The notes below the pieces were generated by a model, which saw only the letters and a program-made list of their open reading frames with translations, did not search any database and was not told the origin of the DNA. Positions 1 to 49,639 of a stretch of 64,000 bases of DNA are shown one piece after another; the stretch's first letter is position 1, and every line of letters begins with the position of its first letter. Origin of the DNA: an uncultured bacterium. Lineage in GTDB: Bacteria; UBA8481. The stretch covers positions 124,001 through 188,000 of the forward strand of contig CAZCME010000002.1 of the NCBI GenBank assembly GCA_964499705.1. The letters run 5' to 3'. The position numbers and the translations under genes are program-made.

Positions 1-975
1 GCGTTCCAGGACCGCGAGGAGCATGGCGAGGCGGTTCGGATCGATGCCCGTGGAGACGCGCCGCGGAAGGCCGAAGGCCGTCGATACGGTCAGCGCCTGG
101 AGCTCCACGATGAGCGGGCGGCGCCCTTCCATCGAGGAGACGACGGCGGAACCGGGAGCCGTGACGGTGCCTCCGGGGAGAAGAATTTCCGATGGATTGG
201 ATATCTCCCGCATGCCGGTCTCGTCCATCGCGAAGAGCCCGACCTCATCGGTCGAGCCGAAGCGATTCTTCATTCCTCGCAGCATCCGGTAGGCTCCGGA
301 CGTGTCCTGTTCGAGAATGAGAACCGCGTCGACGAGGTGCTCCAGAAGCATGGGGCCGGCGATGTCGCCCGATTTCGTGACGTGGCCGATGATGATCGTG
401 GGGATGCCGAGCTTCTTCGCGGCGCGGAGGAGGATGGCCGTGGCTTCGCGGATCTGGTTCACCGCGCCCGTTCCCGCCGACGGAGATTCGACGCGCATCG
501 TCTGGATCGAGTCCACGACGACGAGGTCGGGCCTCGCGCGCTCGATCTCCGCGACGATGTGCTCCACCGCCGCATCGGTCGTGATCGTGATCCGCTTCGC
601 GTCCGCGCTGATCCGGTCCGCGCGGAGCTTCACCTGCGCGGGCGATTCCTCCCCGGCGGCATAGAGCACATTCGTGAAGCCGCGGCAGAGCTGGAGCGCG
701 AGCGTGGATTTTCCGATGCCCGGTTCGCCGGCGAGGAGGACGACGGAGCCGCGGACGAGGCCGCCTCCGAGGACGCGGTCGAGCTCCCCGATGCCGGAGG
801 CGCGCCGGTCCGCCTGGAGCGCGTCGACGTCGGCGAGACGGATCGAGGAGCTTTTCGTGGATGAGGAGCCCCGTTCCTCGATCGTTCCCCACGCGCCGCA
901 GGAAGGGCATTGCCCCAGCCATTGAGGTTGCGCCGAGCCGCATTCCGAGCAGGCGAACGCGGGAGATTTAGCCAT
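1..975 (-). CDS. radA: DNA repair protein RadA/Sms (3' end runs off the window)
   Basis: Own translation from ATG 975: MAKSPAFACSECG..WLGQCPSCGAW zinc finger, Walker A GEPGIGKST and KNRFG motif; absent from ORF track because it has no stop in the window. Confidence 0.95.
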   Translation of the reverse strand, partial: MAKSPAFACSECGSAQPQWLGQCPSCGAWGTIEERGSSSTKSSSIRLADVDALQADRRASGIGELDRVLGGGLVRGSVVLLAGEPGIGKSTLALQLCRGFTNVLYAAGEESPAQVKLRADRISADAKRITITTDAAVEHIVAEIERARPDLVVVDSIQTMRVESPSAGTGAVNQIREATAILLRAAKKLGIPTIIIGHVTKSGDIAGPMLLEHLVDAVLILEQDTSGAYRMLRGMKNRFGSTDEVGLFAMDETGMREISNPSEILLPGGTVTAPGSAVVSSMEGRRPLIVELQALTVSTAFGLPRRVSTGIDPNRLAMLLAVLER

Positions 976-27143: not shown

Positions 27144-27160
27144 TGCGCCGCAGATAGGTC

Positions 27161-27189
27161 TTGATGTCCCTGGTCGCAGGAACTATGCT
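27161..27189 (+). promoter_or_regulatory. Putative sigma70 promoter, leaderless geometry
   Basis: TTGATG-17 nt-TATGCT-6 nt-ATG. Confidence 0.65.
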
Positions 27190-27195
27190 TTCCAC

Positions 27196-30615: not shown

Positions 30616-32313
30616 TCATGTTCCATGGCAGTTCGCGCATCGATTCAATCCGAAGCTGACGCGCCCGTTATGACAGGCGCCGCAACTTTTTCCTTCGCGC
30701 ATGGATTTCATCGTCATCGCTTCACGCCATGGTTTATCGGACAGACCTTCATGGCAGACGAGGCAGGAATCCGACGCGTCGATATGCCGCTGGTGCGGAA
30801 AGCGCACGGCTCCGGGACTTTGCTGCATTTGAGGAAATACGATCGTCGAGTCGACCGCGATTCGATGGCAGAGGCCGCATGCCTTCGTCATGGAAAAAGC
30901 CGCTGAACCGTTATGGCATGTCCCGCATCGCGAGGTTGCATGACCGGTCGATGTATCCCGTCGATCGCCCAGCATCGAATAGAGGGCCGGGTGGCACGTT
31001 CCACATGCGGAGGAATGGGTCGAGTGCGGAAAGATCACCGACCAGGAATCGGAGATGACGACATTCCGGCCGACTCGCGCGCCCGTATCGACGGCCGCAT
31101 CCTCATCAGCGGGTATCCGCTCCGCGCGCACTTCGCCCGGATCGGTCGCGATCAGGATGGCCGCGATCCCGGCCGCGGCAATAGCCGCCAGCGATGCGCG
31201 GTCCCAGAGCGGGTGCTGCGGTCCCTCCTCCTTCTGCAGGAGTCCCAGCCAGAGGGCGCTGAACCGGAAGACGGTCACTCCGGCCGCGATGAGCGCCACG
31301 GTAACGGCGATCTCCTCCCAGCTGGGAACATAAGAATGTCCCTGGAAGGATTCCAGGCCCGTGATGGATACATTAAGCCGGTTCAGCATCACGCCGCCGA
31401 CGGTCAGGATTCCCGCCGCAAGAACCCTGTCAACGCGGAAGCCGCGGAACGCCAGCAGGAGAAATGGCAGCGCGGTGCCGATGAAAATCTCCAGGATCAA
31501 AAGGTTCCGCTCGTATTCCGATCCCGACCAGGAGACGCCGCGATAGAGGAGATCGCCGCACTGCAGCGCCGCGCGGACGATGAGCACCACCAAGAGCCCT
31601 TTCGCCAGCATCATCAGTTCCTTCGTTTCCAGCCGGCTCTGGAATCCGAAATGCGAGAGTGAATTCTCCACGATAACCATCGCGAATCCGCAGCAGACGG
31701 CGCTTGCGAAGAAGAGGACGGGCAGCATGGGCGTCGACCAGTACGGATGGAGCTTGCCGGGGACGATGAGAAAGAGCCCGCCGAGCGAGGACTGATGAAG
31801 TGTCGAGAGCAGGAGCCCGAGCCCTGCGAAGAAGGGCATGGCGCGGTGCAATTTCTCGCCGAGCGCGCGGAGCCCGAGCGCGCCGAGAATTTCAGGAGCG
31901 AGTTCGACAGCGAGTACGGTCGTGTACAGCATGACGCACCAGGCCACCTCGAACATGACGGAACGGGGATTCGGATAGAAGACCGGATGCCAGATATTCC
32001 ACGGGCGGCCGAGGTCGATGAGAAGCGCGATCACGGCGAGGCTGTAGCCGAGAAACGCCGTCAGTACCGCGCCGCGCGCGATTTCGGCATATCTCTTCTG
32101 CCGGAGGATGTAGACGGCGAAAGCGATGGCGAAGGAGCCTGCCGATGTGGCGACTCCCACCAGCATGTCGAATCCGATCCAGAGACCCCAGGGAAAGGCG
32201 TCGGAGAGATTGGTCGATGCGCCCAGGCCGAGCGCGAAGCGCCGCACGATCGCAACGCCGCCCACGGTCATGATGACTGAAAGCAGCGCGCGGTGAAACC
32301 GGGACGATTGCAT
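30616..32313 (-). CDS. NrfD/HybB-family membrane subunit fused to two c7-type triheme domains (6 CxxCH)
   Basis: LSDAFPWGLWIGFD, DLGRPW, SVMFEV, LSTLHQSSLG; C-terminal CGTCH, CGTCH, CGLCH, CLVCH, CGACH, CANCH; ATG 32313 overlaps upstream stop. Confidence 0.9.
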   Translation of the reverse strand: MQSSRFHRALLSVIMTVGGVAIVRRFALGLGASTNLSDAFPWGLWIGFDMLVGVATSAGSFAIAFAVYILRQKRYAEIARGAVLTAFLGYSLAVIALLIDLGRPWNIWHPVFYPNPRSVMFEVAWCVMLYTTVLAVELAPEILGALGLRALGEKLHRAMPFFAGLGLLLSTLHQSSLGGLFLIVPGKLHPYWSTPMLPVLFFASAVCCGFAMVIVENSLSHFGFQSRLETKELMMLAKGLLVVLIVRAALQCGDLLYRGVSWSGSEYERNLLILEIFIGTALPFLLLAFRGFRVDRVLAAGILTVGGVMLNRLNVSITGLESFQGHSYVPSWEEIAVTVALIAAGVTVFRFSALWLGLLQKEEGPQHPLWDRASLAAIAAAGIAAILIATDPGEVRAERIPADEDAAVDTGARVGRNVVISDSWSVIFPHSTHSSACGTCHPALYSMLGDRRDTSTGHATSRCGTCHNGSAAFSMTKACGLCHRIAVDSTIVFPQMQQSPGAVRFPHQRHIDASDSCLVCHEGLSDKPWREAMTMKSMREGKSCGACHNGRVSFGLNRCANCHGT

Positions 32314-33071
32314 CACGCTTTCTCTCCCGTAACGGCGCTTCTTGCCGCGACGGCATCGCGTCGTCGGACGATCCAGTGCAGTCCCGCCAGCATGACCGTG
32401 AGCGTGGAAATGAGCCCGGGAAGATGCGAAAGATAAGCGTCGGTGCGGGTGGGAAGGGGAGAAGAGGGAAGATCCAACCGGAGCCCCAGGTTGGCGAACG
32501 GAATGTCGGAAATCGTGAGGAGAGATGTTCCGCCCGCCTCGGTCATGCCGTAGATTCCGTCGACGTATCCGCCGCCGCCCATCCGCGCTCTTGCTTCCTG
32601 AACCATCGTGTTCCGCTCGCCGAATTTCAAGGCTCCCGTCGGACACGCGAAGGCGCATGCCGGAGGAAGACCTTCCGCCCGCCGCGTGGAACAGAGCTCG
32701 CATTTCCTCACGAGCGGCACGCGGCTCTCCCACTGATACCGCGGAATGCTGAACGGACAAGCCAGGAGACAGTATCGGCAACCCATGCAGAGATCGGACC
32801 GGTACGTCACAGCTCCGTCATCCTGCTTGCGGAAGGCCCCGACGGGACAGACCGACACGCACGCGGGATCGTTGCAGTGCATGCAGGACAGCCGGACAAA
32901 TCGACCTCCTTGCCGCCGGATCGCGAGCAGGGCGCGATCCGTCAGGACCGCTGTGGACGCGGACGAATCGCCGTTATTCGCCTCACGGCAGGCCGTGACG
33001 CAACCCGCGCATCCGATGCAGAGTTTCGCGTCGAAAAGAAACGCGACCTGATCGCCTCCTGGATCCGCCAT
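32313..33071 (-). CDS. 4Fe-4S dicluster protein (HybA/FdnH-like) with C-terminal TM
   Basis: CIGCAGC, CMHCNDPACVSVCP, CMGCRYC..ACP, KCELC..PACAFACPTGAL, EAGGTS. Confidence 0.92.
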   Translation of the reverse strand: MADPGGDQVAFLFDAKLCIGCAGCVTACREANNGDSSASTAVLTDRALLAIRRQGGRFVRLSCMHCNDPACVSVCPVGAFRKQDDGAVTYRSDLCMGCRYCLLACPFSIPRYQWESRVPLVRKCELCSTRRAEGLPPACAFACPTGALKFGERNTMVQEARARMGGGGYVDGIYGMTEAGGTSLLTISDIPFANLGLRLDLPSSPLPTRTDAYLSHLPGLISTLTVMLAGLHWIVRRRDAVAARSAVTGEKA

Positions 33072-35028: not shown

Positions 35029-38000
35029 CTACATTACTTCCCGTGCCTTCGTGGCTTCTTCGACGGCATCGCCTCCTTCGCCGGCGCGCGCCGCTCGCGG
35101 AGCGCCGTACATCATTTCCATGAAGACGCGCTCCCCGTCGGATCGGAAGCGGATCGCGCCGTTCGCATCCGTCCTGACAACCTCGATGCCGGCGTCCTGG
35201 AGCGACATTTCCGTCTGATTGGTGCCTCCTTCAATGTCGCGCATGAAGAGCTGGCGGTGGTCCAGGAGCGAATCGCGATAGGTCTCGCGCGAGCGCCCGC
35301 GTCCCGGAGGAGGCCGGAGATCGCGCGCATAACCGTAGGAGATGACGGCGGTGTCGGGTTTCACGGTTTCATACAGGTAAGGGATGTTGGCCTTGGAGGA
35401 ACCATGCGCGGGCACGGTGATGACGTCGGCGCGGAGTAGTTCCGGCTGGACGCGGAGAAGTTCCCTGACTCCGTCAGCCGTGATGTCGCTTGTCAGGAGA
35501 AACGCGGTGGAACCGTATTCGATCCGGAGGACGATGGAATTGTTGTTGGACGGTTTCAGGGGAAAATCGGGATTGGGATGGAGCGCGACGATCCGGAACC
35601 GCCCGTGCGGACCGTCTTCCGTCCAGAGCACCATGCCGCCGGTGACCTCGAAACATTCCGGAGGGCCCGTTGACGAGAAGACCGACGTCGGAGATATGAG
35701 CGCGATTTCGAAGAGGCGTCTCAATCCTGTCGCGCCGCGCATCGCGATCGAAGCTTCGGACAGGAGAAAGACGGCGTCCTCGAAGTCGGAATTCCTCCTG
35801 CCCTGCGCGACGTCGTTCTGGAGCGCGGCGCCTGCCTGCTGCAGGAACTCCTCGGGCGAGTCGAGATTCCACTTCCAGAAGGGAAGCGCGGCGTAGAATC
35901 GCTTGACGGGGAAGATCTTCAGGATTGCCGAAATGCCTCCGATGTCCTCCGGTGACGGACTGGTCATGATGAGCGCGTCCAATTGGCCGATGCGATCCTT
36001 CAGGAGATACTGCGCGATCGTACGCTCGCCCGTGTTCCATCCGCTCCGGAAATCGTTCGGCCCCGCGTCGACCAGGATCTGGGCGCCGCCCGGCGTCTCG
36101 ATGTGGATGGCGCTGCCGTATCGGACGGCGAGAACGTTCACGTGGAGATCTCCGGTTGGAGTCCGGGGCGCGAATCCCCAGACGGAAACCGCGAGGATCA
36201 GGCAGAACGCGGTCGCGAACGTTCCGATCGCGAAATGCTTCCGGCGCGCGCCGCCGACGCCCATGACGAGATCGTAGTAAAGGATTCTGCCGTGCCGCAG
36301 GAGCGGCTTGTTCCAGATGAAAAGAGCCAGCAGCGCGTAGTACGCGGCGAGCATCCTGGGCGTCATGGTCTGGATGAACGGATAGGGGAAAAAGATCGTC
36401 GTGATGTGCGTGGCCCAGAGGAAGAACCAGATGAGGAGATAATTCGCCGCGTTGAGGGTCAGGGCGACGTAGATGCCGACGACGGGAATCATGCCGATGA
36501 GAGACGCGAAGAGACCGAGCTGGATGATGATGTCGGAGAGGGGGATGGCGAGGAAATTGGCGAACGGTCCGGCGACGGAAGCGCGGCAGAAGTAGTACGC
36601 GGAGAGCGGTCCCATCATGCCGAGCTGGATTGCGACCTGCGCTCCGAGGAAGGCCTGGAGCCAGCCGGGGAGCCTGTTGGCGCCGGGGATTTTCTTGACG
36701 AGTTCCTCCGACGGCGGAGTGAGAAGTCCCAGGGACAGCATGGCCATGAAAGAAAGCGCGAAGGAAGGCTCGATCAGCCATTTCGGATTATTGAGAAGAA
36801 TCGCGGCGGCGGCGACTCCGATGGCCATGAGAAGCGACGCCCGGAGGCTTGCGCCGAGATAGACATAGGTGATGAGAACGAGCGAGTTCATGATGACGGC
36901 GCGGGTTGTGGGAGGTTCGGCGCCTGTAATGAAGCAGAAGATGATGAGGCAGCCGATGATGATGACCGTGTAGATCTTCTTCGGGATCCGGAGGATGACA
37001 AAGAGCGCCCACAGGGCTCCCGCGATGATGGTGACGTGGAGCCCGGAGACGGAAAGGATGTGCGTTGTGCCGGACCAGCGGAATTCGTCGAGAATGAATT
37101 GCCTCAGGTCGATCGGAGCATCCGCCGAAGAGCCTTCCGGCGCGGCGGGAGGCGCTTCTTCGAAGATGCAGCGGATTCCGTCAAGGCCCCGGTCAGTGCC
37201 GAGCGTGACGCCGGCGAGAAACGCGGACTCGGGAAACGGGATCGTGATTTTCATGATCCCCAGCATCCGCTTCTTGATTTCCAGCGACAGCTCGACGATC
37301 GGGTTCCCCTCGGATTCCTCACGGATCGCGATGGGCGGCTTCAGCGGGTCCCAGAACGGAATGCTCGCGGTCGCGAAGACTTCATGGTCGTGATAGAAGA
37401 GCTCCGGATCGAAGAGCCCGGGATTGTCGGCGGGCTTGAATCCGGTGAACTGCGCGTCGACTTCGACGACGTAACCGTAACCGTCGGGGAAGGCGAGCTT
37501 CTCGAATATTTCCCGGAAAGGTTTGTCGCGATCCGTCCATGCCGACGGCCGGAGATAGACCATGACGTTGCCTCCGGATACCTCATACGTCTGCCCGGAC
37601 TCCGGATCGGGCTCGATCATGAACGGTTCGATCGTCAGGACCACGACGCCGGGCCGGTCTTCGACGGGTCGGAATTCCGGTTCCGCCACGATGCGACCGA
37701 GCATCCGCGTGTGATCTTTCTTCCGGTCAAGATCCGGGAATTGCTCGATGAGAGTCTTGATATGCTGCGCGCGCGCGGAGGGATCGAACGGCGCGATGTA
37801 CGTCTTCTGCGCGTAGCGCCCATAACCGAGCGCGATCGCGGAGGCGCCGATCAGCAGATACACGAGGCCCCCGTGAATGCCGGCGCGACCTCGCTCCTGA
37901 GCGACGGCCATTCCCCATCCGATGATGCCGCAGAGAGCCGCCGCGGCGTACGCCGGCCAGACCTGGTCGATCGTCGCGCTCGCCGCCATCGCGATGGCGA

Positions 38001-38046
38001 TGCCGAAAATGAATGCGTAGGTGGAGAAGACGACTCGCTGGGCCAT
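35029..38046 (-). CDS. comEC: ComEC/Rec2 DNA-uptake channel homolog A (OB + Competence + degenerate MBL)
   Basis: NPGLFD, SGTTHILSVSGLHV, TRAVIM, SFALSF, ANFLAIP, ILVDAG, RTDANGAI. Confidence 0.9.
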   Translation of the reverse strand: MAQRVVFSTYAFIFGIAIAMAASATIDQVWPAYAAAALCGIIGWGMAVAQERGRAGIHGGLVYLLIGASAIALGYGRYAQKTYIAPFDPSARAQHIKTLIEQFPDLDRKKDHTRMLGRIVAEPEFRPVEDRPGVVVLTIEPFMIEPDPESGQTYEVSGGNVMVYLRPSAWTDRDKPFREIFEKLAFPDGYGYVVEVDAQFTGFKPADNPGLFDPELFYHDHEVFATASIPFWDPLKPPIAIREESEGNPIVELSLEIKKRMLGIMKITIPFPESAFLAGVTLGTDRGLDGIRCIFEEAPPAAPEGSSADAPIDLRQFILDEFRWSGTTHILSVSGLHVTIIAGALWALFVILRIPKKIYTVIIIGCLIIFCFITGAEPPTTRAVIMNSLVLITYVYLGASLRASLLMAIGVAAAAILLNNPKWLIEPSFALSFMAMLSLGLLTPPSEELVKKIPGANRLPGWLQAFLGAQVAIQLGMMGPLSAYYFCRASVAGPFANFLAIPLSDIIIQLGLFASLIGMIPVVGIYVALTLNAANYLLIWFFLWATHITTIFFPYPFIQTMTPRMLAAYYALLALFIWNKPLLRHGRILYYDLVMGVGGARRKHFAIGTFATAFCLILAVSVWGFAPRTPTGDLHVNVLAVRYGSAIHIETPGGAQILVDAGPNDFRSGWNTGERTIAQYLLKDRIGQLDALIMTSPSPEDIGGISAILKIFPVKRFYAALPFWKWNLDSPEEFLQQAGAALQNDVAQGRRNSDFEDAVFLLSEASIAMRGATGLRRLFEIALISPTSVFSSTGPPECFEVTGGMVLWTEDGPHGRFRIVALHPNPDFPLKPSNNNSIVLRIEYGSTAFLLTSDITADGVRELLRVQPELLRADVITVPAHGSSKANIPYLYETVKPDTAVISYGYARDLRPPPGRGRSRETYRDSLLDHRQLFMRDIEGGTNQTEMSLQDAGIEVVRTDANGAIRFRSDGERVFMEMMYGAPRAARAGEGGDAVEEATKAREVM

Positions 38047-38237: not shown

Positions 38238-38346
38238 GCCGCAGAGTATACGGCGTCAGGTCCCCGATTTGTCCATTTGAAAGTGGGCCGGGCATTTCAA
38301 GTTCTGAGTGGAGAGTCATTCAGGTTCCTGTATACTCCTGTGCTCC

Positions 38347-38511
38347 ATGCATGAATTTTCCGGCAAATTGATCCTGATTCTCGTTTTCCTCGCCTTTGTG
38401 GCCGGTGCCCTCGTGGTGACCTTCGACAGCAGCTATACGATCGAGGAGAATGTCGAATCCAACAAGGATTACTATCCTTCGGTGAAAGTGGACACCGGCA
38501 ATGGCCATTAA
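38347..38511 (+). CDS. Small single-TM protein, paralog of 38046-38237
   Basis: MHEFSGKLILILVFLAFVAGALVV..ESNKDYYP; TATACT upstream; overlaps next ATG by 11 nt. Confidence 0.7.
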   Translation: MHEFSGKLILILVFLAFVAGALVVTFDSSYTIEENVESNKDYYPSVKVDTGNGH

Positions 38512-41500
38512 GAATCTTCTGAACGATCTCGATTGGCGCGCGGCCGCGCGGCTGGCGGGCGCGCGGTTCAAGCATTGGCTGGCGAATCCCGTGCCCCTCA
38601 GTTTTTCCAAGATCGGCACGTATCAGAATTGTCCCTACAAATACCACGTGATCTATGATCAGCATCAGCCGGGAAAACCGAGCCCCGCTCTGGCTGTTGG
38701 AACCGTCATGCATAACACGCTGTATGCGTTCGAATCGATCACGGCGAAGGATCGAGGCTTCGCCGACCTGGAGCGGCTCTATCGCAGGCACTGGGACATG
38801 GAGATCGGCGAGCACAGGCGCCGATGGGGATCGAGTCTTTACCAGACGATCGCGGCGGAGAAAGGCTCCTCCGCGGACGAGCTCGAGAAGGAAGCGTTCG
38901 AAAAGGGGATTCTCGTCATCAAGAACTACTGGGCCAACGAGCGGAATAATCCCAACAAGGTGCGCTACGTGGAAAAGTGGGTCTTCGCCGAGCTCTTCAA
39001 ATACCACATCACGGGCCGGATCGACCGGATCGACCAGAGGCCGGACGGATCGTACCAGATCATCGACTACAAGACGGGCGAGCGCATCTACGACCAGACG
39101 ACGCTGAAAGATGCTTCGCGCGGTTATGGGCTCCAGGCGGGCCTCTACTATGAAATGAGCCGCGAAGCGTGGCGTGATCGCGTCTCAAGCTTCGTCTTTC
39201 GCTACCTGCAGAAGAAGCAGTCGATGCTTGATCATCTGTTGGAAAGCTGGATGGAGCAGATTCTGGCGGCGAGCCGTCAGGCTCTGGCGGGAAATGCTTC
39301 GGGCGCGGCGAGGCCGGAGCGCGCTCTGATGCGGGAGCGGATGATCGCAAAATTGGATGAGAATATCCGCGACAAGCTGCGCGAGAAACTGCTCGCGAAG
39401 TTCGCGGCGGAGCGGGAAGAGGAGCGGATCCGCGGCGAGCTGAAAAAGATTTCGCCTGATGAAGAAGAGCGCTTGCTCGAAGGGCTCGACGGAGCGAGCC
39501 TGTCCCAGGGGCGGGCGTTCGTGCGTGGGCTCAACAGATCGGCGGAGTCCCGCGTGAATGACGGCGTGCGAAATGCCATCGCGGATCCGATCCGCATGCG
39601 GGACTATTATGACGACGCGAACCGCGCTCTGGAGGCGATCCTGGCGCGCGTCGATCCTGTCAGATCCGCGGTGGCTGTGGACACGGTCCTCGACGGTTAC
39701 GAGGCGGCCCTCACGGCATGCGGGACGGGCGCATGGCCCGATCTCGATATCACGACGCGACAGACCATCTCCGGGGAGATCGTCGATATCATCCACCATC
39801 AGGATGCCAAGGACAGGACCGAACGAAAGCTGCGGAACATGGAGGCGGCCGAGCTTCGGAGTGTTGTCGAGGCGATGATTCCGGAATATCCGGAACTGGA
39901 TCTTTCGCACGGCAGGGGAATTGCCTCGGTGGTCGTCGAGGAGTTGAAAGCGTCGTATCCGCGGCACTTCGACGTCTATACGATCGACGACGTGGCGCGC
40001 CGGATGAGCGAAAATGCTCCGGAAGGATATCTCAGGCCCGATTACCGCGAGCGGATCGCGAGGGTGTTGGATGGGATCGAGAATAAGGCGACGATGCCGG
40101 GGGATGCCGCAGGGGCCGAGCGCCGCGGCGTCATGCTGAAACCTCTCCACGAAGCGTTCAAGCGCCTATTGAAGGGCGCCGTCCTGCTGGTGGCCGATTC
40201 GATCGGAAAGGGGCAAGCCGCGGATCTGACCGAGGTGGAGAAGCAGCGTTACATCCGGATTCTTACCACGCTGGGCGATCCCATCTTCACGCACCTCGCC
40301 GCTCAGAAGATCGCGGAAGCGCTCTCGAAGAGCGTCTTCGGCGAGATTCACTTCGCCGCGGGTGTCGTTCCCGTGACGAAACACATCACCGATCTCTTCG
40401 AGCGCCCCGACGTCGCCGCGATCCTGGCGTCTCAACATCCCGATTGGGATCCGGGGCGCGTCCAATCCGAGACGCAGTCGCTGATCGAGAAGCTCGATTG
40501 GCGCGACGTGGAGACGATTGTGGAAGACGCGTTCCGAATCTCGCGCGAGGAGTGGCGGAAATTCGTGGAACGCGTCATCGCGCCCGGCCTCCGTGATGCG
40601 GTGACGACGATCTCGTCGCCCGAAGCCGCGTCGACGGCGATCGAGGAGGCGGCGATTCTCTTCGAAAACCGGCTCCATCGCATCGTCGCGCACGACGTCG
40701 AGGTGCCGTACTCGCCGGAGATGCGCGAGAACATCCGTCGCGTCCTCGATGATGTTCAGGATGGAATTCGCAAAAAAGATTTCTCCATGGCCAAGGGTTC
40801 GCTCTGCGGCTGGTGCGAATACCAGTCCGGGTGCCCCGCGTGGTGCCAGCATCGCTCTCTCTGCGAGGGCGTCTGCAAGGATGTCTACAACTGCCGCAAG
40901 TGGTATGACGCGGAGACGGGTCGGCTCCGCGACGACAGGCCGAAGGAGATGAGCGCGGAGGAATTCGAGCGCAGGATCCGCGAGAAGTTCGTCACGACCG
41001 ATCGGTCGCTCTTCCGGCTTTCATTCTCCAAGATGAACACTTACGACCTCTGCCCCATGAACTATAGGAAACTCTATCTCGATCACTGCCCGCCGCAGCC
41101 GAAGGCGTTCTTCTCGATCGGGCTTTCGTACCACAGTACGATGGAGGATCTCTTCGTCTACGACGGTCCTCACAAGCATCCGTCCCTGGAGAAGGTCAAG
41201 GAGATGTTCAAGGCGAAATGGATTTCCGCAGGGTACCGGAGCGCTGAGGAGGAGGACTTTTATTTCCGCAGGGGGCTCCGGATGTGCGAGGACTACCACG
41301 CGAAGTTCATCACCGGGAAGTACCGGCGCGCGTACGCCACGGAGGAGTATTTCGAATTCCGCGTCGGTAAGACGCTCTTGAACGGATTCATCGACCGCGT
41401 CGACCGTGACGAGGACGGGCAGTTCACGATCGTCGATTACAAGACGAATCCGAAGATGTACACGCAGGAGGAGCTCGAGGACGATCAGCAGATGACGATG

Positions 41501-41917
41501 TATTACCTCGCGGCGCGGGAGGGAAAACTGGGTTGCTCGGGTTACAAGCCCTTCGAGCCGAAGCAGTTCGTTTTCCAGTTCGTCAACTTCTGCAAGGAAC
41601 TTGTGACGCACAGGAAGGCGCCGGACCTGGACGTCTTCGTGGATCGCGTTTCGCATTTCACCGACGAGATCGAGTGGAGGCAGAAGGCGTACAAGGCGAG
41701 CGGGTTCGATCCGCGCATCGGCATGCTTCTCTTTCCGCCGAAGGAGAACAAATACTGCCAGTCGTGCGATCACCACCATATCTGTCCCCTGAAATCGGAT
41801 GTGACCGTGAGCCAGGAGATCGAGAAGAAGGGGATCCACTTCGAGGACATCTTCGTCGATGCGGAAGCGATGGCGCAGTTCGACGACCGGACGGCTGAAG
41901 CGGATTCGAAGCAGTGA
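38501..41917 (+). CDS. Tandem double PD-(D/E)XK nuclease (two AddB/Cas4-like Fe-S domains) with large helical insertion
   Basis: LSFSKIGTYQNCP..GRIDRID..IIDYKTG..CGWCEYQSGCP and LSFSKMNTYDLCP..GFIDRVD..IVDYKT..CQSCDHHHICP. Confidence 0.9.
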   Translation: MAIKNLLNDLDWRAAARLAGARFKHWLANPVPLSFSKIGTYQNCPYKYHVIYDQHQPGKPSPALAVGTVMHNTLYAFESITAKDRGFADLERLYRRHWDMEIGEHRRRWGSSLYQTIAAEKGSSADELEKEAFEKGILVIKNYWANERNNPNKVRYVEKWVFAELFKYHITGRIDRIDQRPDGSYQIIDYKTGERIYDQTTLKDASRGYGLQAGLYYEMSREAWRDRVSSFVFRYLQKKQSMLDHLLESWMEQILAASRQALAGNASGAARPERALMRERMIAKLDENIRDKLREKLLAKFAAEREEERIRGELKKISPDEEERLLEGLDGASLSQGRAFVRGLNRSAESRVNDGVRNAIADPIRMRDYYDDANRALEAILARVDPVRSAVAVDTVLDGYEAALTACGTGAWPDLDITTRQTISGEIVDIIHHQDAKDRTERKLRNMEAAELRSVVEAMIPEYPELDLSHGRGIASVVVEELKASYPRHFDVYTIDDVARRMSENAPEGYLRPDYRERIARVLDGIENKATMPGDAAGAERRGVMLKPLHEAFKRLLKGAVLLVADSIGKGQAADLTEVEKQRYIRILTTLGDPIFTHLAAQKIAEALSKSVFGEIHFAAGVVPVTKHITDLFERPDVAAILASQHPDWDPGRVQSETQSLIEKLDWRDVETIVEDAFRISREEWRKFVERVIAPGLRDAVTTISSPEAASTAIEEAAILFENRLHRIVAHDVEVPYSPEMRENIRRVLDDVQDGIRKKDFSMAKGSLCGWCEYQSGCPAWCQHRSLCEGVCKDVYNCRKWYDAETGRLRDDRPKEMSAEEFERRIREKFVTTDRSLFRLSFSKMNTYDLCPMNYRKLYLDHCPPQPKAFFSIGLSYHSTMEDLFVYDGPHKHPSLEKVKEMFKAKWISAGYRSAEEEDFYFRRGLRMCEDYHAKFITGKYRRAYATEEYFEFRVGKTLLNGFIDRVDRDEDGQFTIVDYKTNPKMYTQEELEDDQQMTMYYLAAREGKLGCSGYKPFEPKQFVFQFVNFCKELVTHRKAPDLDVFVDRVSHFTDEIEWRQKAYKASGFDPRIGMLLFPPKENKYCQSCDHHHICPLKSDVTVSQEIEKKGIHFEDIFVDAEAMAQFDDRTAEADSKQ

Positions 41918-44900
41918 CGAAGCCGCTTCCGGATCCCACGGCGGTCTGGTTCGTCTTCTCCGCGGCGGGACAGCAGGGGCCCTACACGCCCGAGCAGATC
42001 ACCCGATGGCGGCGTGACGGGTTGGTTTCTGGCGAGTGGTATGTCTGGCGCGAAGGGTGGACCGACTGGCGCTTGCTCGATGAGGTCGACGAACTTCGCG
42101 TGCAGGCGACCGCGGCTCCGCTGCCTCCTGTCGCGCCTTCGCGAAAGGTTTCGGAAGAAGAGCGCAGGGAATTGCCGGGCTCGATCGTCCCGCAGGTTGC
42201 GGCGATGGAACTCAAGAAGGAATCGGCGAAGCAGGAAATGGCGCCCGCGTCGGCGCGCGAAGCGTCCTCCGTCGTCGCTTCCGTCGTCCCCGCCATTTCA
42301 AAACGTGCCGGAGCCGTGCAGCACAAGGTCCGCCTAAGTTTCAAGGACACCGTCACGATGTACTTGAAGCTCATCTTCATAAAGCTCATGCAGTATCTCG
42401 AGATCTGCGCGATCCCGTATCTCGTCGGAATCGGATTGGCCGTCGGATACCGCTTCAAGCTTCCGGCGGAATATTGGGAAATCGCCGAGTGGCTCGGCGT
42501 CGGAGGAGTCCTCCTCGCGTTCTACGTCCCTGTCATCGTATTCCATGCGCTGTATCTTTTCTATCTCAGGGCGAAAAATCCCGGGTACTCCATCGTCTTC
42601 TTTCTGGAGGATCGTCTCTCCGAGCGCAACTTCACGCGGCTCCTCGCGTTGTGCGCCATCGTTGTCTCTGTGGCATTCGGCGTCATCAACTACAGTTTCG
42701 CGACCGACATCTCCGATCCGCGCCACATCTCGAAATTCGTCGCCAAACCCTGGGAGACGAATCCCGTGACGTTGACGGGCACGATCATCCGGGAACCTGA
42801 ATTCCGCGACTACAGCGTCTGGCTCTATATCGAACCGACGAAGTTGAAGAAAGCGGGGGAGAAGACCACGAAGAATATCGACGGAGGTTTCGTTCTCGCC
42901 AAGATCAACAGGACGGTCGAGGGATTCGAGGAGTTCGAGTACGGAGAAGAAGTGAAGCTGATTTCGGATCTGCGGGAACCGGAGCCCGCGGTCAACCCGG
43001 GAACGTTCGATTACAAGACGCACCTCAACAACCGGAACATCTACGGGATCATGACCGTCAACGCCGCGGAGAACATTTCGGTCGTGAGCCGTCCCGATAA
43101 GAACGTCATCGTCGCGATCTCTCTCGCGGTGAAGGAGAAATTCCTGGGGATCATGAAGCAAACTCTGCCGTACCCTCATTCCTCATTCCAGGGCGGCATC
43201 ATCTACGGCTTGAAGACGGGACTGCCTCCGGAGCAGCATTTCGAGTTCAAGTGGGCCGGAATGGCGTGGGTGCTCGTTGTCGCCGGAGCGCACCTCCTGA
43301 TGGTTTACCTGACTCTGAAGATGATTCTCGAGAGCCTGCGCCCGAATCCGAAGGTCGGATTCGTCATCCTCTTCAGCATGCTCCTGGTATTCCTCATACT
43401 GACCGGCATTAATCCTCCGACGGTGCGCGCCTTCATCATGCTCTTCCTCTATGAATTCACCAAGACATTCCTGGGCCAGGATACCCGCGCGGCCGTGAAG
43501 AGCGCGATCTCCATCGCGGCGTTTCTCCTCCTCGCGTCCCACATGTATCCCTACTTCTCGCCGCTTATGATCTTCGATCCGACCGTGACGCTCTCTTTTG
43601 GAGCGGTTCTCTCGCTCTCGTTCCTCTCGCGCCCCGTCGAGCGGATGCTGCGGCGTTACGCGTACGGCTTGACGAGCGTTATCCTGCTGACCGGCCTAGT
43701 CGGGACGATGGCGACGATGAACATACTGCGGCCTCCGACACTTTCCCTCATGGGGCGACAGACTCTTCCCATCGCGGCCGCCACGCTCGCGCTGGCCGCG
43801 ATCACGATCGCCTGGAACAACCGGTTTCGCCGGAAGCACAATCTCGACCATGTCTACCTGGGATACAACGACCCGTCGCTCTTCCGAGGTTTCAGGCGCT
43901 GGGTCCATCCCGACTGTTTCTCCTACAACAATCTGCCGAAGTTCGTGCTCGGGTTTCTCGGCGCTCAGATCGCGATCCAGTTCGGAATGGTGCTGCCTCT
44001 GTCGAGCTGGTACTTCCAGCGATCTCCCGTCGGCGGATTCATCGCCAATGTCATCGCGTTCCCGGCGCTCGGCGCGATCATCCAGGTCGGGCTTGTCGCC
44101 GTTCTTCTTGGATGCATCCCGGTGATCGGAATCTACCTTGCGTTCCTGTTGAATGCCGCGGATTACCTCGGCATCGAGCTGTTGATGCAACTGGCACACT
44201 GGTCAAAGGTGCTCTTCCCCTATCCGATGGCGATGAAACCCGGCGCGTCCCAGATCTTTCTCTATTATTGCATCCTGGTCGGATTCATTCTCTTCGATCG
44301 CGTCTTCTACTCCATGGACAAGCGCGGGTACATGTCGCTTCGTGAACTTTTCAAGGAGAAGTACGACACGACGCACAAGACTTTCTACAGGATGCTTCTG
44401 CCGATCGTGAACGGTTCGATTCGGCAGGCTGTTGTCCTCCTGCTCTTCTGCGGCGCGGCGGGCTGGGGGGCGGTCGTTCTGGCCGAGGGAAGGACGCCCG
44501 ATCACGTCCGCGTCATCGTCATGGAGCTCGACGGCGGATCGGGAATCCTGATCGAGACTCCTTCCGGCGGGCATTACCTCGTCGACGCCGGTAACGTCGA
44601 TTGGCGCGGCACGTTCGATCCGGGCGAGCGAACGGTCGCGCCCGTTGTCCTGAATCAGCAGGTGGAACATCTCGAGGGCGTGATCATTTCATCCGTCCGG
44701 ACGGAGAATCTCGGAGGCATCGCGTTCCTGCTCGAGAATTTCACCATCGACCATCTCTATGTGCCTTTCGATCCGAAGCTGTTGATGCGCGCGGCCGTTT
44801 TCGACTCGGCCGCGTTCGAGCAGGCGACCGGCAAGCCGCCGAAGTCGAAGAGCGACCGGACGCTTCTCGGCGCGATGGAGAAGATCCGATTGGTGGTCCG

Positions 44901-45552
44901 CGAGAAGGAATTGAACGTGCGCCGGGTGAACGGCGGTGACGTGATCCTGAAGGAGGAAGGATGTATCATCACGGCGCTGACGCCGATCGATCAGATTCCG
45001 AGAACGGTCGCTGTGGTCGCCGTGGACACGCACGTGCCCGCGGACACCCTGCTGGCGCAATCGCTTGCCGCTGCCTCCGCGGAGCCCGAGCCGAACATGA
45101 AGCGGGCCGTGATCGCTTTCCGGATCGCGTGCGGAGCGAAGACGATTCTTGTCGCCAACGACATCTACGACAGGGAAGAGCAGGCACTGGTGGCAAGCGA
45201 GAAGAATCTCAGTGCGGACGTCCTCCTGATACCTTCGCACGCCAAGGACTGGGCTTCGAGCGAGGAATTTGTCACCGCCGTGAAACCGAAATACGCGATC
45301 GCGCAGTATCGCTCGCCGTCGGGACGCTATGCGCAACCGGACGGAGCAGACGAGATTTTCGCACGGTATGAAGCGGCCGGCGCACAGGTGTTGCGGACGG
45401 ATCGGAACGGCGGCGTCGTGATCGACGTATGGCCGAGCGGCCGGATTCTGGTGGAACCTATGATGCATGCCGGCGGAACTGTGGCGGCGGAGTCCGCCGG
45501 CGAAGCGGGAATCGAACAGTCGGCTGTGAGGAGCGAAGGTACGGGGCTTTGA
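41914..45552 (+). CDS. comEC: ComEC/Rec2 homolog B with N-terminal GYF_2 (DUF4339)-like domain
   Basis: QQGPY..VWREGWTDW; NPGTFDY, VLVVAGAHL, VRAFIM, TLSFGAV, YLVDAG, RTDRNGGV; GTGA overlap with nuclease gene. Confidence 0.88.
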   Translation: MTKPLPDPTAVWFVFSAAGQQGPYTPEQITRWRRDGLVSGEWYVWREGWTDWRLLDEVDELRVQATAAPLPPVAPSRKVSEEERRELPGSIVPQVAAMELKKESAKQEMAPASAREASSVVASVVPAISKRAGAVQHKVRLSFKDTVTMYLKLIFIKLMQYLEICAIPYLVGIGLAVGYRFKLPAEYWEIAEWLGVGGVLLAFYVPVIVFHALYLFYLRAKNPGYSIVFFLEDRLSERNFTRLLALCAIVVSVAFGVINYSFATDISDPRHISKFVAKPWETNPVTLTGTIIREPEFRDYSVWLYIEPTKLKKAGEKTTKNIDGGFVLAKINRTVEGFEEFEYGEEVKLISDLREPEPAVNPGTFDYKTHLNNRNIYGIMTVNAAENISVVSRPDKNVIVAISLAVKEKFLGIMKQTLPYPHSSFQGGIIYGLKTGLPPEQHFEFKWAGMAWVLVVAGAHLLMVYLTLKMILESLRPNPKVGFVILFSMLLVFLILTGINPPTVRAFIMLFLYEFTKTFLGQDTRAAVKSAISIAAFLLLASHMYPYFSPLMIFDPTVTLSFGAVLSLSFLSRPVERMLRRYAYGLTSVILLTGLVGTMATMNILRPPTLSLMGRQTLPIAAATLALAAITIAWNNRFRRKHNLDHVYLGYNDPSLFRGFRRWVHPDCFSYNNLPKFVLGFLGAQIAIQFGMVLPLSSWYFQRSPVGGFIANVIAFPALGAIIQVGLVAVLLGCIPVIGIYLAFLLNAADYLGIELLMQLAHWSKVLFPYPMAMKPGASQIFLYYCILVGFILFDRVFYSMDKRGYMSLRELFKEKYDTTHKTFYRMLLPIVNGSIRQAVVLLLFCGAAGWGAVVLAEGRTPDHVRVIVMELDGGSGILIETPSGGHYLVDAGNVDWRGTFDPGERTVAPVVLNQQVEHLEGVIISSVRTENLGGIAFLLENFTIDHLYVPFDPKLLMRAAVFDSAAFEQATGKPPKSKSDRTLLGAMEKIRLVVREKELNVRRVNGGDVILKEEGCIITALTPIDQIPRTVAVVAVDTHVPADTLLAQSLAAASAEPEPNMKRAVIAFRIACGAKTILVANDIYDREEQALVASEKNLSADVLLIPSHAKDWASSEEFVTAVKPKYAIAQYRSPSGRYAQPDGADEIFARYEAAGAQVLRTDRNGGVVIDVWPSGRILVEPMMHAGGTVAAESAGEAGIEQSAVRSEGTGL

Positions 45553-45638: not shown

Positions 45639-46727
45639 TCAGGCGAGAAAGGCCGCCCGTGTTATCACGATATTTACGATGATGTAGGCCGGGATCATGA
45701 TCGCTGCGGTCAACCGGTCTAGGGCACGCGAAAGGTCCGGGTCGTCCCACTTGCCGAAGATGGCCAGCGAGATGACGGACTCCGCCACGATGAGAAAGAT
45801 CGTGCCAAGGCCGATGCCGTTCACGAAATCGACAAGGCCCAACCCGCCGCTGTCGGGGACCATGGAATTGGCGAGGTAGATGTTCGCTACGGCGCCGAAG
45901 AATGCGCCGGCCGCGAGACCGAACCGCGGATCGACGTCCGAGGGCTTGATGAAGAGGACGCAGAAAGCGAGCGAGATCGCGGCGAAAAGAGCCAGGGAAA
46001 TCTTGAGGAAGAGGTCGTAACCGGGACGGTTGAGGTTGATGCCGAGGACATACTGCGAGACGATGCGCTTCATGTCGGCTGGAAGCCGGGGATCGCCGTG
46101 CCTCGATTTGTACGTGTGATTTTTAACGGCGTCGCGGAATCCCGTCAACGTGTATCCGGGAACCTTGACGCGGGAACTCACGCTCGTGGCTCCGGCATCG
46201 ACCGCGTAACGAAGCGCCATTCCGTCCCGCGAGCCGTCCTCGATGTACAGGTTCAGCATGTGGTCTTCCAGGGGGAACCTTCCGATATCGAAGAACTTCG
46301 TGATGTGCGCGGTCACGCGGCAGCGCTGGTAATTCGTGCCGTCTGGATCATGAACATCGTCGAGCATGGTCCGGGATGCGATCTCCCCGTCGATCACCTG
46401 AAAAGAGCCGCCTGGATCGAGTTTCGGATCTCCGGTCCAACGGAACCAGACGTAGAAATCCACGTCCCATGACGATTCGCGGATCGAGAGATTGACGATG
46501 CGGTCGATGTAGGTGCCGATCGAAACCGTCGCGAAGGGCCCGGATTCCGGGAGAGGATCAGGCGGAGTCTTACCCGGCTCCGCGCGCGTCGGATCGAGCC
46601 GTGCCGCGTGTCGCGCGGCGGCGGTGTCCCTCGTCTCGGCCAGCGAACGCGAAATTGTCCAACCGGCGACGGAGTAGATCGACAGTAGAAGAATGGCCCA
46701 GACGGCCAGGATGAGCGATTTATTCAT
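45639..46727 (-). CDS. Prokaryotic pentameric ligand-gated ion channel (GLIC/ELIC-like)
   Basis: VSIGTYIDRIVNLSI..WDVDFYVWFRW, Pro-loop FDIGRFPLEDH, conserved R before four C-terminal TMs. Confidence 0.8.
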   Translation of the reverse strand: MNKSLILAVWAILLLSIYSVAGWTISRSLAETRDTAAARHAARLDPTRAEPGKTPPDPLPESGPFATVSIGTYIDRIVNLSIRESSWDVDFYVWFRWTGDPKLDPGGSFQVIDGEIASRTMLDDVHDPDGTNYQRCRVTAHITKFFDIGRFPLEDHMLNLYIEDGSRDGMALRYAVDAGATSVSSRVKVPGYTLTGFRDAVKNHTYKSRHGDPRLPADMKRIVSQYVLGINLNRPGYDLFLKISLALFAAISLAFCVLFIKPSDVDPRFGLAAGAFFGAVANIYLANSMVPDSGGLGLVDFVNGIGLGTIFLIVAESVISLAIFGKWDDPDLSRALDRLTAAIMIPAYIIVNIVITRAAFLA

Positions 46728-46822
46728 ACCGCATGTTCTCGGAAACTGGTGACAAGGTCAACACCGCGAATTTAAGATGACCCTCCGCCGATCCCGGCGG
46801 AGGGCCTTGCTGCGCTCGATGA

Positions 46823-47275
46823 TTATTCGATCGTTGCGTCTTCGGCATTCAGCGTAAGCTTGTTGATCGCCGTCAACTTGAGATCGTCGTAGACATGCTC
46901 GTCGCCGTTGTCCTCGACTGCCTTCAGGTCCCATAGTTCGACGTCGCTTTTGTATCCCGTGAACGAGATCTTCGTGCTCGATGCATTCTTGAATAGTTCG
47001 CCGGCCGGGACCATGTTCTCCTCCCAGTTCTTGACATCGGAGGGAGAAAGATACAATTCCTTGATGTCGTAACCCGTCGCGTTGACAAGCTCGAAATCGA
47101 GGGCTGACTCCGTCTGCATAGTGTCCGTCGCCGGTGCCGCGGCTTGCGGGGGAGGCGCCGGCGCGGCGGGAGCCGGTGCGGGAGCAGCGGCCGGTTCCGC
47201 GGGCTTCGCGCCTCCGCATGCTGAAAGTCCGACTGAGATCACGCCGATAACCAACCATGTTGTGACTTGCTTCAT
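46823..47275 (-). CDS. Lipoprotein with Ala/Pro linker and small beta-sandwich domain
   Basis: Lipobox LSAC, PAPAPA linker, DFELVNATGYDIKELYLSP..W..WDLK; SD GAAAGG. Confidence 0.75.
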   Translation of the reverse strand: MKQVTTWLVIGVISVGLSACGGAKPAEPAAAPAPAPAAPAPPPQAAAPATDTMQTESALDFELVNATGYDIKELYLSPSDVKNWEENMVPAGELFKNASSTKISFTGYKSDVELWDLKAVEDNGDEHVYDDLKLTAINKLTLNAEDATIE

Positions 47276-47416
47276 TTCTTACCTTTCCTTTCGAGGAAAA
47301 ATCCTGCCTGGATTGAATTCGTGGATTCCATGGATCCGCTTGACGTCCGCGCAGTGTATCGGCCAGCTGATTCAAGGTGAAGAGGTTTTACGTGCGCTTT
47401 CCTACAGTTCCATTTT

Positions 47417-47532: not shown

Positions 47533-49107
47533 TCAGGCTCGGTCGGGTTGATTCTCATCCCCCGCCGGCAGCGTCAGGCGAAATCTTGCGCCGCCCTCGC
47601 GCCTGTTCCCGGCTACGATCGTTCCTCCCAGATCCGTCGCGAGACGGTAGGATATCCAGAGCCCCAGGCCGGCGCCCTGGCCCTGGCCTGCGTCTTTCGT
47701 CGTGAAGAAAGGATCGAAGATGCGGGGGAGGACATCGAGCGATATGCCGGGTCCGTCGTCTTCCACCGTGAATTCATGCTGTTTCCCTTCGCGGCCGGAA
47801 CTCACCTCGACCGTAATCTGTCTCGCTCCGGCTTCGGCTGCATTTCGGATGAGGTTGGAGAGGATCTGCTGGAGGTCGCCCGCGCAGGTATGGAGCGAGG
47901 TCAGATCGGGCGCGAACCGGGGTGTCACGCGGCAGGTGGCGAAACGGGGTTGGGGCTCCAGGAGTGAAATGACCGAGAGCACAACCTTCCGGGGATCGAC
48001 ACGTTCTTTGCTTCCGCCCGGCCGGGAGAATGCGAGGAAGTTCCGGACGATCTGACCGCATCGTTCCGCTTCCTCGATGATCCGTTTCAGCTTCGTCGCT
48101 TCGGGCGTATCGGCCGCGGCTTCGCGCAGAAGCAGATGAGCGAACGTGATGATCCCGGTGATCGGATTATTCACCTCGTGCGCAATGCCGGCCGCGAGCG
48201 CTCCCACCGCGGAAAGTTTTTCACGCCGCAGGATCTGTTCCTCCGCGTCGCGGAGCTTGATCGTGCCGTCCGTGATCCGCGCCAGCATCAGGCGGTGCGC
48301 GTCCCGCAGCCGCGCATGCATGACGTTGAACGCGCCCGAAAGCGACCGGATCTCCGCGGCTCCTCCGACCGGCAACTCGCGCGCCTGCTCCGGCCCCTTT
48401 TCCGCAAGTGCCCTGCAGGCCGCCGCGAGCCGCTTGACAGGCCGGCTCACGAGCAGATGTCCTCCGAGCCCGAAGACGATCGCGAGGAGCGGCGACCAGA
48501 GGGCGAGGGCGATCGCGAGCGTGCGGCGGGCGGTCGTCATGCGGTCATCGATGTCCGCTATGGAGACCTGGATGTCGATGACGCCAAGCACCTTTCGCGA
48601 CGCGGGATGGGCATGACAGGATGCGTCGCTGCAGGAAGGCTCGTTGTAGATGGGCGTGATGAAGCCGATGTTCCGGTGTTCCGTGCCGGGAGCCTCGAAA
48701 ACCCTGATGCGCCGCGGCCGTCGCGGCGCGACAAGAGGTTCGCCCGCGGCATGGCATGTGACGCAGGCTTCCGCTTCCAGGTCGAGGCGCGAACCCGCCT
48801 CGCCCTCTCGCGAAGAGAAGACGATCTCCCCGGCCTTGTTGATGATCCGGACCGCTTCCACGCCGGTTTCGGACCCGGCCGCTCGGATGATTTCCGCGAG
48901 ATCCTCTCGGCGGTTCCGGAGCATGGCGTAGCGGGCCGCGCCTCTCAGCGCATGCGAAAACCGTTCGGCGCCATGTTCGGCTTCATACATCGTGCTCTCT
49001 TCCAGGATCTGAAAAATGAGCGCGCCCGCTCCGGCCGCCGTTAGGAGGATCGAGAAGCCGATCAGGAGAGCGAGGCGCCACGCGAGAGGGAAGGGTTGAG
49101 GCGTCAC
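47533..49107 (-). CDS. NtrB-type sensor histidine kinase with heme-motif periplasmic domain and HAMP
   Basis: CVTCH and CSDASCH in sensor domain; AHEVNNP, NLIRNA, DDGPG, FDPFFTTK, GLGL; GTG start overlaps upstream stop. Confidence 0.92.
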   Translation of the reverse strand: MTPQPFPLAWRLALLIGFSILLTAAGAGALIFQILEESTMYEAEHGAERFSHALRGAARYAMLRNRREDLAEIIRAAGSETGVEAVRIINKAGEIVFSSREGEAGSRLDLEAEACVTCHAAGEPLVAPRRPRRIRVFEAPGTEHRNIGFITPIYNEPSCSDASCHAHPASRKVLGVIDIQVSIADIDDRMTTARRTLAIALALWSPLLAIVFGLGGHLLVSRPVKRLAAACRALAEKGPEQARELPVGGAAEIRSLSGAFNVMHARLRDAHRLMLARITDGTIKLRDAEEQILRREKLSAVGALAAGIAHEVNNPITGIITFAHLLLREAAADTPEATKLKRIIEEAERCGQIVRNFLAFSRPGGSKERVDPRKVVLSVISLLEPQPRFATCRVTPRFAPDLTSLHTCAGDLQQILSNLIRNAAEAGARQITVEVSSGREGKQHEFTVEDDGPGISLDVLPRIFDPFFTTKDAGQGQGAGLGLWISYRLATDLGGTIVAGNRREGGARFRLTLPAGDENQPDRA

Positions 49108-49625: not shown

Positions 49626-49639
49626 GACGAGCCCCCCGC

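Follow-up and report, generated by a model that had tools for sequence, protein, structure and literature searches.

The nuclease gene and its neighbours

We describe here the gene for a large tandem-domain nuclease in a 64,000-nucleotide stretch of DNA (the window) from an uncultured bacterium of the lineage UBA8481 (GenBank assembly GCA_964499705.1, contig CAZCME010000002.1, positions 124,001 to 188,000 of the forward strand); unless a contig or locus is named, coordinates are positions in the window. The gene (38501..41917, + strand) is an open reading frame for a predicted soluble protein of 1138 amino acids with two Cas4/AddB-type iron-sulfur nuclease domains in tandem. Its start is overlapped by 11 nucleotides by a reading frame for a protein of 54 amino acids (MHEFSGK..., 38347..38511, +) with one transmembrane helix and the tail motif YYPSVKV. 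Its stop overlaps by 4 nucleotides the GTG start of a ComEC-family gene (41914..45552, +), to whose 1212-residue product Pfam and NCBIfam assign GYF_2, DUF4131 and Competence domains and a degenerate C-terminus like a metallo-beta-lactamase (MBL), and which has at least 10 hydrophobic segments. A second ComEC-like gene (35029..38046, −; 1005 residues, Pfam Competence E 9.1e-43) lies upstream in divergent orientation.

The sole Pfam family in the 1138-residue protein is PF12705 (PDDEXK_1), which matches in three stretches (E 2.7e-54; 185.2 bits, against a curated cut-off of 22). NCBIfam gave only sub-threshold matches, to addB, cas4 and recB models, and neither database found a helicase family, UvrD included. 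Domain 1 comes in two parts. The N-terminal part (residues 33-241; 38597..39223, +) contains the motifs LSFSKIGTYQNCPYKY (33-48), GRIDRID (172-178) and IIDYKTG (187-193), with Cys44, His71 and the catalytic residues D175, D189-x-K191 and Q212/Y216. The C-terminal part (residues 726-779; 40676..40837, +) consists of a returning strand, a helix and the motif CGWCEYQSGCP (769-779; nucleotides 40805-40837), in which Cys769, Cys772 and Cys778 complete, with Cys44, a 1+3-cysteine staple. The insert that parts them covers residues 242-725 (39224..40675, +). Domain 2 (residues 835-1100; 41003..41800, +) is a complete Cas4/AddB-type nuclease, and its residues 839-1096 are the best PF12705 stretch, with the full profile covered. 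Its motifs are LSFSKMNTYDLCPMNY (840-855), GFIDRVD (962-968), IVDYKTN (977-983) and CQSCDHHHICP (1086-1096), its catalytic residues D965, D979-x-K981 and Q997/Y1001, and its staple cysteines C851 and C1086/1089/1095. The catalytic residues correspond to the motifs named Asp, (D/E)xK and QxxxY in enzymes of this type. The linker between the domains holds WCQHRSLCEGVCKDVYNC (residues 781-798), a module of four further cysteines with the spacing C782-x5-C788-x3-C792-x5-C798 (40841..40894, +).

The two domains resemble each other as well as known nucleases. Residues 33-223 are 27% identical to domain 2 (E 5e-18), and profile-profile comparison of the N-terminal part with domain 2 gives a probability of 100% (E 6e-43). 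PADLOC Cas4 profiles match in two separate pieces, residues 147-256 to profile positions 45-136 and residues 731-780 to positions 109-159, so that the split in domain 1 is visible at the profile level. An AlphaFold2 model of the whole protein, built on a 31-row alignment, has a mean predicted local distance difference test score (pLDDT) of 88.9 and a predicted template modelling score (pTM) of 0.87. In VIA-align comparisons, domain 2 superimposed on AdnA with Z 16.7 (root-mean-square deviation 3.1, 234 residues aligned) and on ACE1 with Z 15.5 (237 aligned; TM score 0.69 on the target by Foldseek), domain 1 matched AddB with Z 15.1 (model residues 21..910) and AdnB with Z 9.4 (29..754), and Cas4 structures reached Z 8.8-11.6. 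Foldseek also found AdnA, ACE1 and AddB, with E values from 3e-6 to 7e-4. Structure alignments and conservation together suggest that Cys44 is brought up to Cys769/772/778 across the insert, and both domains are predicted to bind a 4Fe-4S cluster.

A preliminary description of this DNA, drawn up without database searches, had proposed two Cas4/AddB-like domains with full motifs, the first split by a long helical insertion, four extra cysteines in the linker and no helicase motifs. Every motif was found in its place and Pfam and the fold agree on both domains, the insertion comes to about 480 residues and is spanned by the AddB and AdnB structure matches, and the four cysteines lie where described.

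The protein has no hydrophobic segment (Kyte-Doolittle maximum 1.13, 19-residue window), and for this reason it is most likely soluble and cytoplasmic, as an iron-sulfur enzyme is expected to be. The corresponding maximum of the 54-residue protein is 3.03, at residue 8. This small protein has no Pfam family; it is 52-56% identical in three other loci (L018, L019 and L020), is present also in L096 and is shortened in L095. A promoter-like site precedes its reading frame (38309-38336), and the count of such sites is at chance level.

Recurrence and conservation of the long form

The same layout was found in six other full-length or near-full-length proteins (925-1277 residues, 38-51% identity), and an exhaustive HMMER search added one more, P0017. 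We call these proteins long forms and their relatives without the insert short forms. Six long-form loci lie in other assemblies; they may include some of the proteins just counted, and three of them (L019, L094 and L096) seem to represent a single lineage. Logan contigs from four runs of two studies cover the gene with no listed differences and bridge both insert junctions (39224 and 40676) and the junction with comEC; two of the runs, X1 and X2, may be the source sample. The AlphaFold2 model is confident across the insert junctions. At 40761-40778 and at 41366, contigs of X1, X2 and X4 share short stretches with the gene and then continue into unrelated sequence; these are probably other organisms with a common word of the cysteine motif region.

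Wherever a long form covers a catalytic or cysteine position of either domain, the residue is the same as in the window (7/7). Cys769/772/778 are invariant in all eight long forms and all 23 short forms, and the catalytic residues of domain 2 in every row covering them, the 23 short forms included. Some of the short forms show erosion of domain 1, with Asp189 retained in 15/23, Gln212 in 11/23 and Tyr216 in 10/23. In the long forms His71, Asp175, Asp189, Lys191, Gln212 and Tyr216 are all kept (7/7) at an overall identity of 36-52%. Since domain 1 is fully kept there and domain 2 is invariant, both nuclease sites look alive in the long-form clade, and both are predicted to be active. All eight long forms have the four linker cysteines C782, C788, C792 and C798 and none of the 23 short forms does, which makes a second metal site a reasonable inference from the alignment.

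The helical insert

In the AlphaFold2 model a strand at 228-241 is followed by helices only (242-720) and then by a strand at 726-734. Domain 2 has a hairpin of strands 1022-1027 and 1032-1036 ahead of its last helices and cysteine triad, and because the strands flanking the insert correspond to those of this hairpin, the model places the 484-residue insert at the tip of the beta-hairpin of domain 1. In a 616-residue relative without the insert, the equivalents of residues 240 and 735 are separated by a single codon. The protein thereby illustrates cleanly how an iron-sulfur nuclease can accommodate a large domain at a hairpin tip with the staple retained.

The insert has no strand of three or more residues, which rules out a RecA-like helicase core. 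Its net charge is −17, compared with −3 to −10 in five of the six other long-form loci and +2 in the sixth, L095. Profile comparisons detected neither degenerate nuclease copies (probability 0.3-0.5% against the nuclease domains) nor an internal duplication (1.4% for the two halves against each other), with a positive control at 100%. Searched alone, the insert matched nothing among 5.8 billion proteins of 266-847 residues, and in the full-length search matches outside the family were confined to the nuclease part. The best ESM Atlas score was 0.76, under the level of a lead; Foldseek against the PDB gave no match at E <= 0.001; and the best hit of a wide VIA comparison, the Nab2 N-domain (Z 8.7 over 80 residues), was within the stated noise for helical models. 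We also considered a helicase remnant, which the preliminary description had named as a possible objection. The helical sub-domains of PcrA, Rep and AddB (residues 84-180) reached only Z 6.1-6.6, which we treat as noise and as too weak a likeness to identify the insert as such a remnant.

A rare tandem family linked to comEC

The exhaustive HMMER search, made against 1.84 billion representatives, returned 39 proteins at E <= 1e-30. About 25 of these are two-domain proteins of 540-670 residues, and others have more CxxCx5C units: three in P0031 and P0033, four in P0020 and five in P0018 and P0022, where Pfam confirmed five PDDEXK_1 stretches. The 1138-residue protein thus belongs to a rare family with two to five tandem Cas4-like domains, and the tandem design is not unique to it. 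In a tree of last domains the tandem family stands apart from single-domain outgroups (support 92). On this tree, of domain 2 and its equivalents, the long forms make up one clade (SH-aLRT, an approximate likelihood ratio test, 100) inside an unresolved polytomy; being one clade, they indicate a single origin of the long-form design. Although the long forms sit in a polytomy, the insert was presumably gained rather than lost, because no other known domain of the type has it. The insert, the four cysteines (8/8 against 0/23) and the small membrane protein gene are all confined to this clade.

The two-domain gene without the insert occurs in 22 of 26 genomes of one small-genome phylum, and in all 14 that are of high quality. 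Searches of 72,556 plasmids and 50,697 phages brought up single-domain matches only and no tandem form. The nuclease homologue P0006 has a proline-rich N-terminal extension in which Pfam found no GYF domain. A 583-residue protein of another genome (L016:6444-8195, genome G017) has GAF and GGDEF (diguanylate cyclase) domains in one chain with a complete PDDEXK_1/Cas4-like domain, so that a nuclease fold is, unusually, coupled to cyclic di-GMP synthesis.

A comEC gene lies directly downstream in all six long-form loci with downstream DNA (the window, L018, L019, L020, L094 and L096), of which L019, L094 and L096 may be one lineage; L095 stops at a contig end. Two loci without the insert have other arrangements, one running from ComEC through the nuclease to an MBL gene and, further on, a ComEC-like gene, the other from ComEC through a tandem helix-hairpin-helix (HhH) gene and an MBL gene to the nuclease and a DHH gene. 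In the phylum of the first of these, all 24 two-domain loci have ComEC or a ComEC-type MBL within 1.5 kb (the ComEC C-terminus in 9, only a ComEC-type MBL gene in 15), against none of six loci of single-domain paralogues. Control loci of single-domain relatives gave ComEC in 0/43 (L021-L063) and 0/41 (L097-L137), in two partly overlapping sets with many short contigs and with a profile built from eight ComECs of the loci studied here, which distant ComECs could escape. The nuclease gene is therefore functionally linked to comEC, and the preliminary concern that the architecture might be unlinked to that gene is answered by 6/6 long-form and 24/24 two-domain loci.

The linked ComEC begins with a GYF_2 domain (residues 12-61, nucleotides 41947-42096, E 7.4e-9), after which comes a proline-rich linker; in related genomes, several genes have GYF_2-like matches as well. 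The MBL-like end of this ComEC has SSVRTEN in place of HxHxDH. We aligned eight ComECs, taken from the window (41914-45552 and 35029-38046), L013, L014, L015, L018 and L019, and HxHxDH is missing from all seven that have such an end; the eighth, L013b, is without it. Beside short-form nucleases, the stand-alone MBLs still have HKHGDH or HPHADH, together with a membrane anchor at the N-terminus.

Distribution of the cassette and surrounding genes

The upstream ComEC-like gene (35029..38046) is native to the lineage, with full-length orthologues of 54-58% identity in all four genomes of the same family or order. In these four relatives neither the nuclease (best matches E 4e-5 to 7e-4, or none) nor the coupled ComEC (matches only to the other paralogue, 31-38%) was found with the queries used, and a distant genome has nuclease and ComEC side by side, with the ComEC 48% identical. 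This distribution fits transfer of a three-gene cassette; alternatively the relatives, whose genomes are 86-96% complete, may have lost it. Synteny with G003 and G004 is limited to the native ComEC-like gene and an HhH gene, which in G003 lies directly beside that gene, and points to no insertion site. In the window, 10 kb from the ComEC genes, a 253-residue protein (27094-27855, +) combines a staphylococcal-nuclease (SNase) domain with ComEA-type HhH motifs; possibly it receives DNA in the periplasm and brings its own nuclease.

Elsewhere in the genome (G000:C7:222464-223210 and G000:C2:349290-349967) there are a third ComEC-family gene (a 566-residue frame, Competence E 3.7e-54) and further PDDEXK_1 genes, with frames of 656, 952 and 335 residues. 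Just past the linked comEC, reading frames of 362 and 205 residues (45639-46727, −, and 46758-47375, −) have no Pfam family, showed no likeness to ComEC or the nuclease, and are not kept beside the cassette in L018 or L019. Respiratory-type genes at 30616-33071 (−) and 51031-53214 (−) encode an NrfD-like membrane protein with cytochrome c7 repeats, a 4Fe-4S dicluster protein and a fusion of a multihaem cytochrome to cytochrome b561; a sigma-54 activator and a histidine kinase (47533-51034) stand between them.

Discussion

By profile score, catalytic motifs, cysteine pattern and fold, the 1138-residue protein belongs to the PD-(D/E)XK nucleases of the Cas4/AddB/RecB type, and it has the features of a class that we define from the present data, that is, at least two PDDEXK_1 domains, the last of them complete, beside comEC. 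In one account of DNA uptake, the OB and MBL domains of ComEC are periplasmic, and single-stranded DNA (ssDNA) comes out into the cytoplasm, where ComFA and ComFC act (PMC13539106). The reading that we favour, and hold to be reasonably probable, is that the protein is a cytoplasmic nuclease which degrades or processes the ssDNA emerging from ComEC. Action on the emerging strand is suggested because a soluble double nuclease is encoded, and probably co-translated, with ComEC. A soluble enzyme with two active Cas4/AddB-type PD-(D/E)XK sites, each stapled by a 1+3-cysteine iron-sulfur site, would then be the cytoplasmic partner of the import channel from the same operon, and would take over and cut the strand as it leaves the channel. 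The outcome would most likely be oligonucleotides for salvage: degradation to this end is favoured because related operons also encode an active MBL with a membrane anchor, an HhH protein like ComEA and a DHH phosphoesterase. Trimming before recombination seems less likely, and keeps some weight because DprA occurs in all five carrier genomes searched.

The insert, the four-cysteine module and the co-translated 54-residue membrane protein may be lineage-specific docking or regulatory parts that would hold or control the nuclease at the membrane channel. Metal binding, nuclease activity, ssDNA as the substrate, contact between nuclease and ComEC, and the part played by the insert are all putative in this scheme; for the insert the preliminary description had offered a ruler, a sensor or a docking arm, any of which may apply. 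A complex prediction for nuclease residues 1-835 with the 54-residue protein scored 0.00 and has no bearing either way. The preliminary description had suggested an enzyme able to cut both strands, and here we depart from it: ComEC delivers ssDNA, and ACE1, which of the solved relatives with known activity lies closest, is according to its description an ssDNA endonuclease (PMC12094033), so that two sites need not mean duplex cutting. The proposed place of the nuclease, receiving ssDNA at the cytoplasmic exit of ComEC, is that of ComFA and ComFC; ComFA, however, works as an ATP-dependent translocase, drawing DNA in for recombination (PMC13539106), whereas the protein described here is a nuclease without an ATPase, and the expected fate of the DNA therefore differs.

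Several observations count against this reading of the nuclease. Adjacency of genes speaks for functional linkage rather than physical contact, and the controls for that linkage have the limits given above, in the ComEC profile, the short contigs and the overlap of the two sets. The linked ComECs are divergent (in the window the Competence domain scores 95.5 bits, in two stretches), and conduction of DNA by them is predicted only. The window operon has no active periplasmic nuclease, and ComEC-type MBL genes lie elsewhere in the genome (C3:289594-290355 and C2:336721-337716). The acidic charge of the insert argues against direct DNA binding, and DprA does not separate feeding from recombination.

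A bolder version of the ssDNA-processing proposal, which we think unlikely, is that the insert, the four cysteines and the 54-residue protein clamp the nuclease to the cytoplasmic mouth of a ComEC with a dead MBL, forming a machine that imports and shreds DNA without an ATPase. The two sites, in series, would cut stepwise; the nuclease would act as a ratchet that rectifies the movement of the DNA and would replace the ComFA motor; and gating, through redox state or the supply of iron, would fall to the extra cysteines. If this were true, DNA uptake in these groundwater bacteria would be a feeding organ and not a route to recombination.

The same chemistry could serve another purpose, as a barrier at the point of entry: the nuclease might destroy foreign DNA entering through ComEC, or make pieces for an immune system, on the models of ACE1 for Argonaute and of Cas4 for CRISPR adaptation. 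ACE1 is among the closest solved structures and, of those that stand alone, the nearest solved relative. It consists of one Cas4-family domain roughly as large as domain 2, boosts plasmid interference, and has its activity modulated by a partner from an adjoining gene (PMC12094033). Cas4 profiles and Argonaute-associated Cas4-like profiles of PADLOC also match, weakly (E 1e-10 to 3e-6). Unlike the protein here, however, ACE1 is a single domain with a long-A Argonaute partner and a role in immunity (same source), and the neighbours scanned include no Argonaute or other defence family, so that the likeness is one of fold alone. CRISPR Cas4 (TIGR00372; PDB 4ic1 and 8d3l) is of the same domain class, but the present protein is much larger and tandem, scores 36.5 bits against a TIGR00372 cut-off of 65 (PADLOC E 1e-10), and has no Cas family (cas1/cas2) among the 20 neighbouring reading frames scanned. 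Furthermore, the near-universal presence of the two-domain gene in one phylum is considered atypical for defence genes, and the absence of tandem forms from the plasmids and phages searched points the same way. We regard a defensive purpose as unlikely.

It is quite improbable, in our view, that this is a helicase-less repair nuclease, resecting ends in the manner of AddB or AdnA with a helicase encoded elsewhere and with an incidental position beside comEC. The best structural matches are indeed the nuclease domains of mycobacterial AdnAB (AdnA, AdnB) and of AddB from Bacillus AddAB (PDB 9np6, 6ppu and 3u44), which have the same fold and, by sequence, the same 1+3-cysteine iron-sulfur staple and D...(D/E)xK and QxxxY motifs, and the sub-threshold NCBIfam matches include addB models. 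In those systems, however, the nuclease domains lie at the end of helicase or helicase-like subunits, and the motor formed by two subunits works on duplex ends. The present protein has no helicase domain, no helicase gene lies next to it in any locus scanned, two nuclease domains share one chain with a 484-residue insert, and the neighbours are ComEC genes instead of addA or adnB. The scores against the addB models fall far under their cut-offs (TIGR02773 and TIGR02786; 22.6 against 903.7 bits and 47.9 against 486.5), adjacency to comEC recurs in unrelated lineages and is absent from the single-domain controls, and the PDDEXK_1 genes of this genome with 952- and 656-residue frames could serve repair.

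Quite improbable, too, is a protein with one working site, in which catalysis rests with domain 2, while domain 1 and its insert bind or regulate without catalysing and only resemble an active site. The erosion of domain 1 in short forms, beside an invariant domain 2, would suit such a division of labour, but the retention of every catalytic residue of domain 1 in the long forms indicates purifying selection on that site. Lastly, an assembly chimera, which the preliminary description had held up as a possible objection, or a fused pseudogene has next to no chance of being the explanation: nothing was found in its favour in this 45-contig assembly, and the layout recurs in six other proteins and in six loci of other assemblies, with junctions that contigs of two studies bridge without differences and that the model renders with confidence.

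We found no literature linking ComEC with a Cas4-like or PD-(D/E)XK nuclease; subscription journals and supplements lay outside the search. For tandem Cas4-like domains in one polypeptide the search found only ZomB of Streptococcus pneumoniae ICESp23FST81, which has two such domains with predicted 4Fe-4S clusters (PMC9453066). ZomB has a UvrD helicase in front (same source), whereas the protein here has no helicase or ATPase motif and is tied to comEC; neither Pfam nor NCBIfam finds a UvrD family in it, and its insert is not RecA-like. The proteins described here thus make up a rare family of ComEC-linked tandem nucleases that we have not found in print; the domain from which they are built is a known one, and the long form is a new variant within the family. 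What is new in the long form is the insert, the four-cysteine module, the mini-protein and the fact that both sites are intact.

It is a long-standing question, argued mostly from physiology, whether DNA uptake by bacteria chiefly serves recombination or feeding. In several uncultured lineages, and nearly universally in one phylum, the genes for the uptake channel are accompanied by one for a predicted cytoplasmic double nuclease, and this nuclease is a concrete, clonable candidate for what determines the fate of DNA past ComEC. Because it adds an insert, a second cysteine cluster and a mini membrane protein, the form in the window is the most elaborate member of the family, and it offers a natural place to study how a soluble nuclease may be coupled to a membrane channel.

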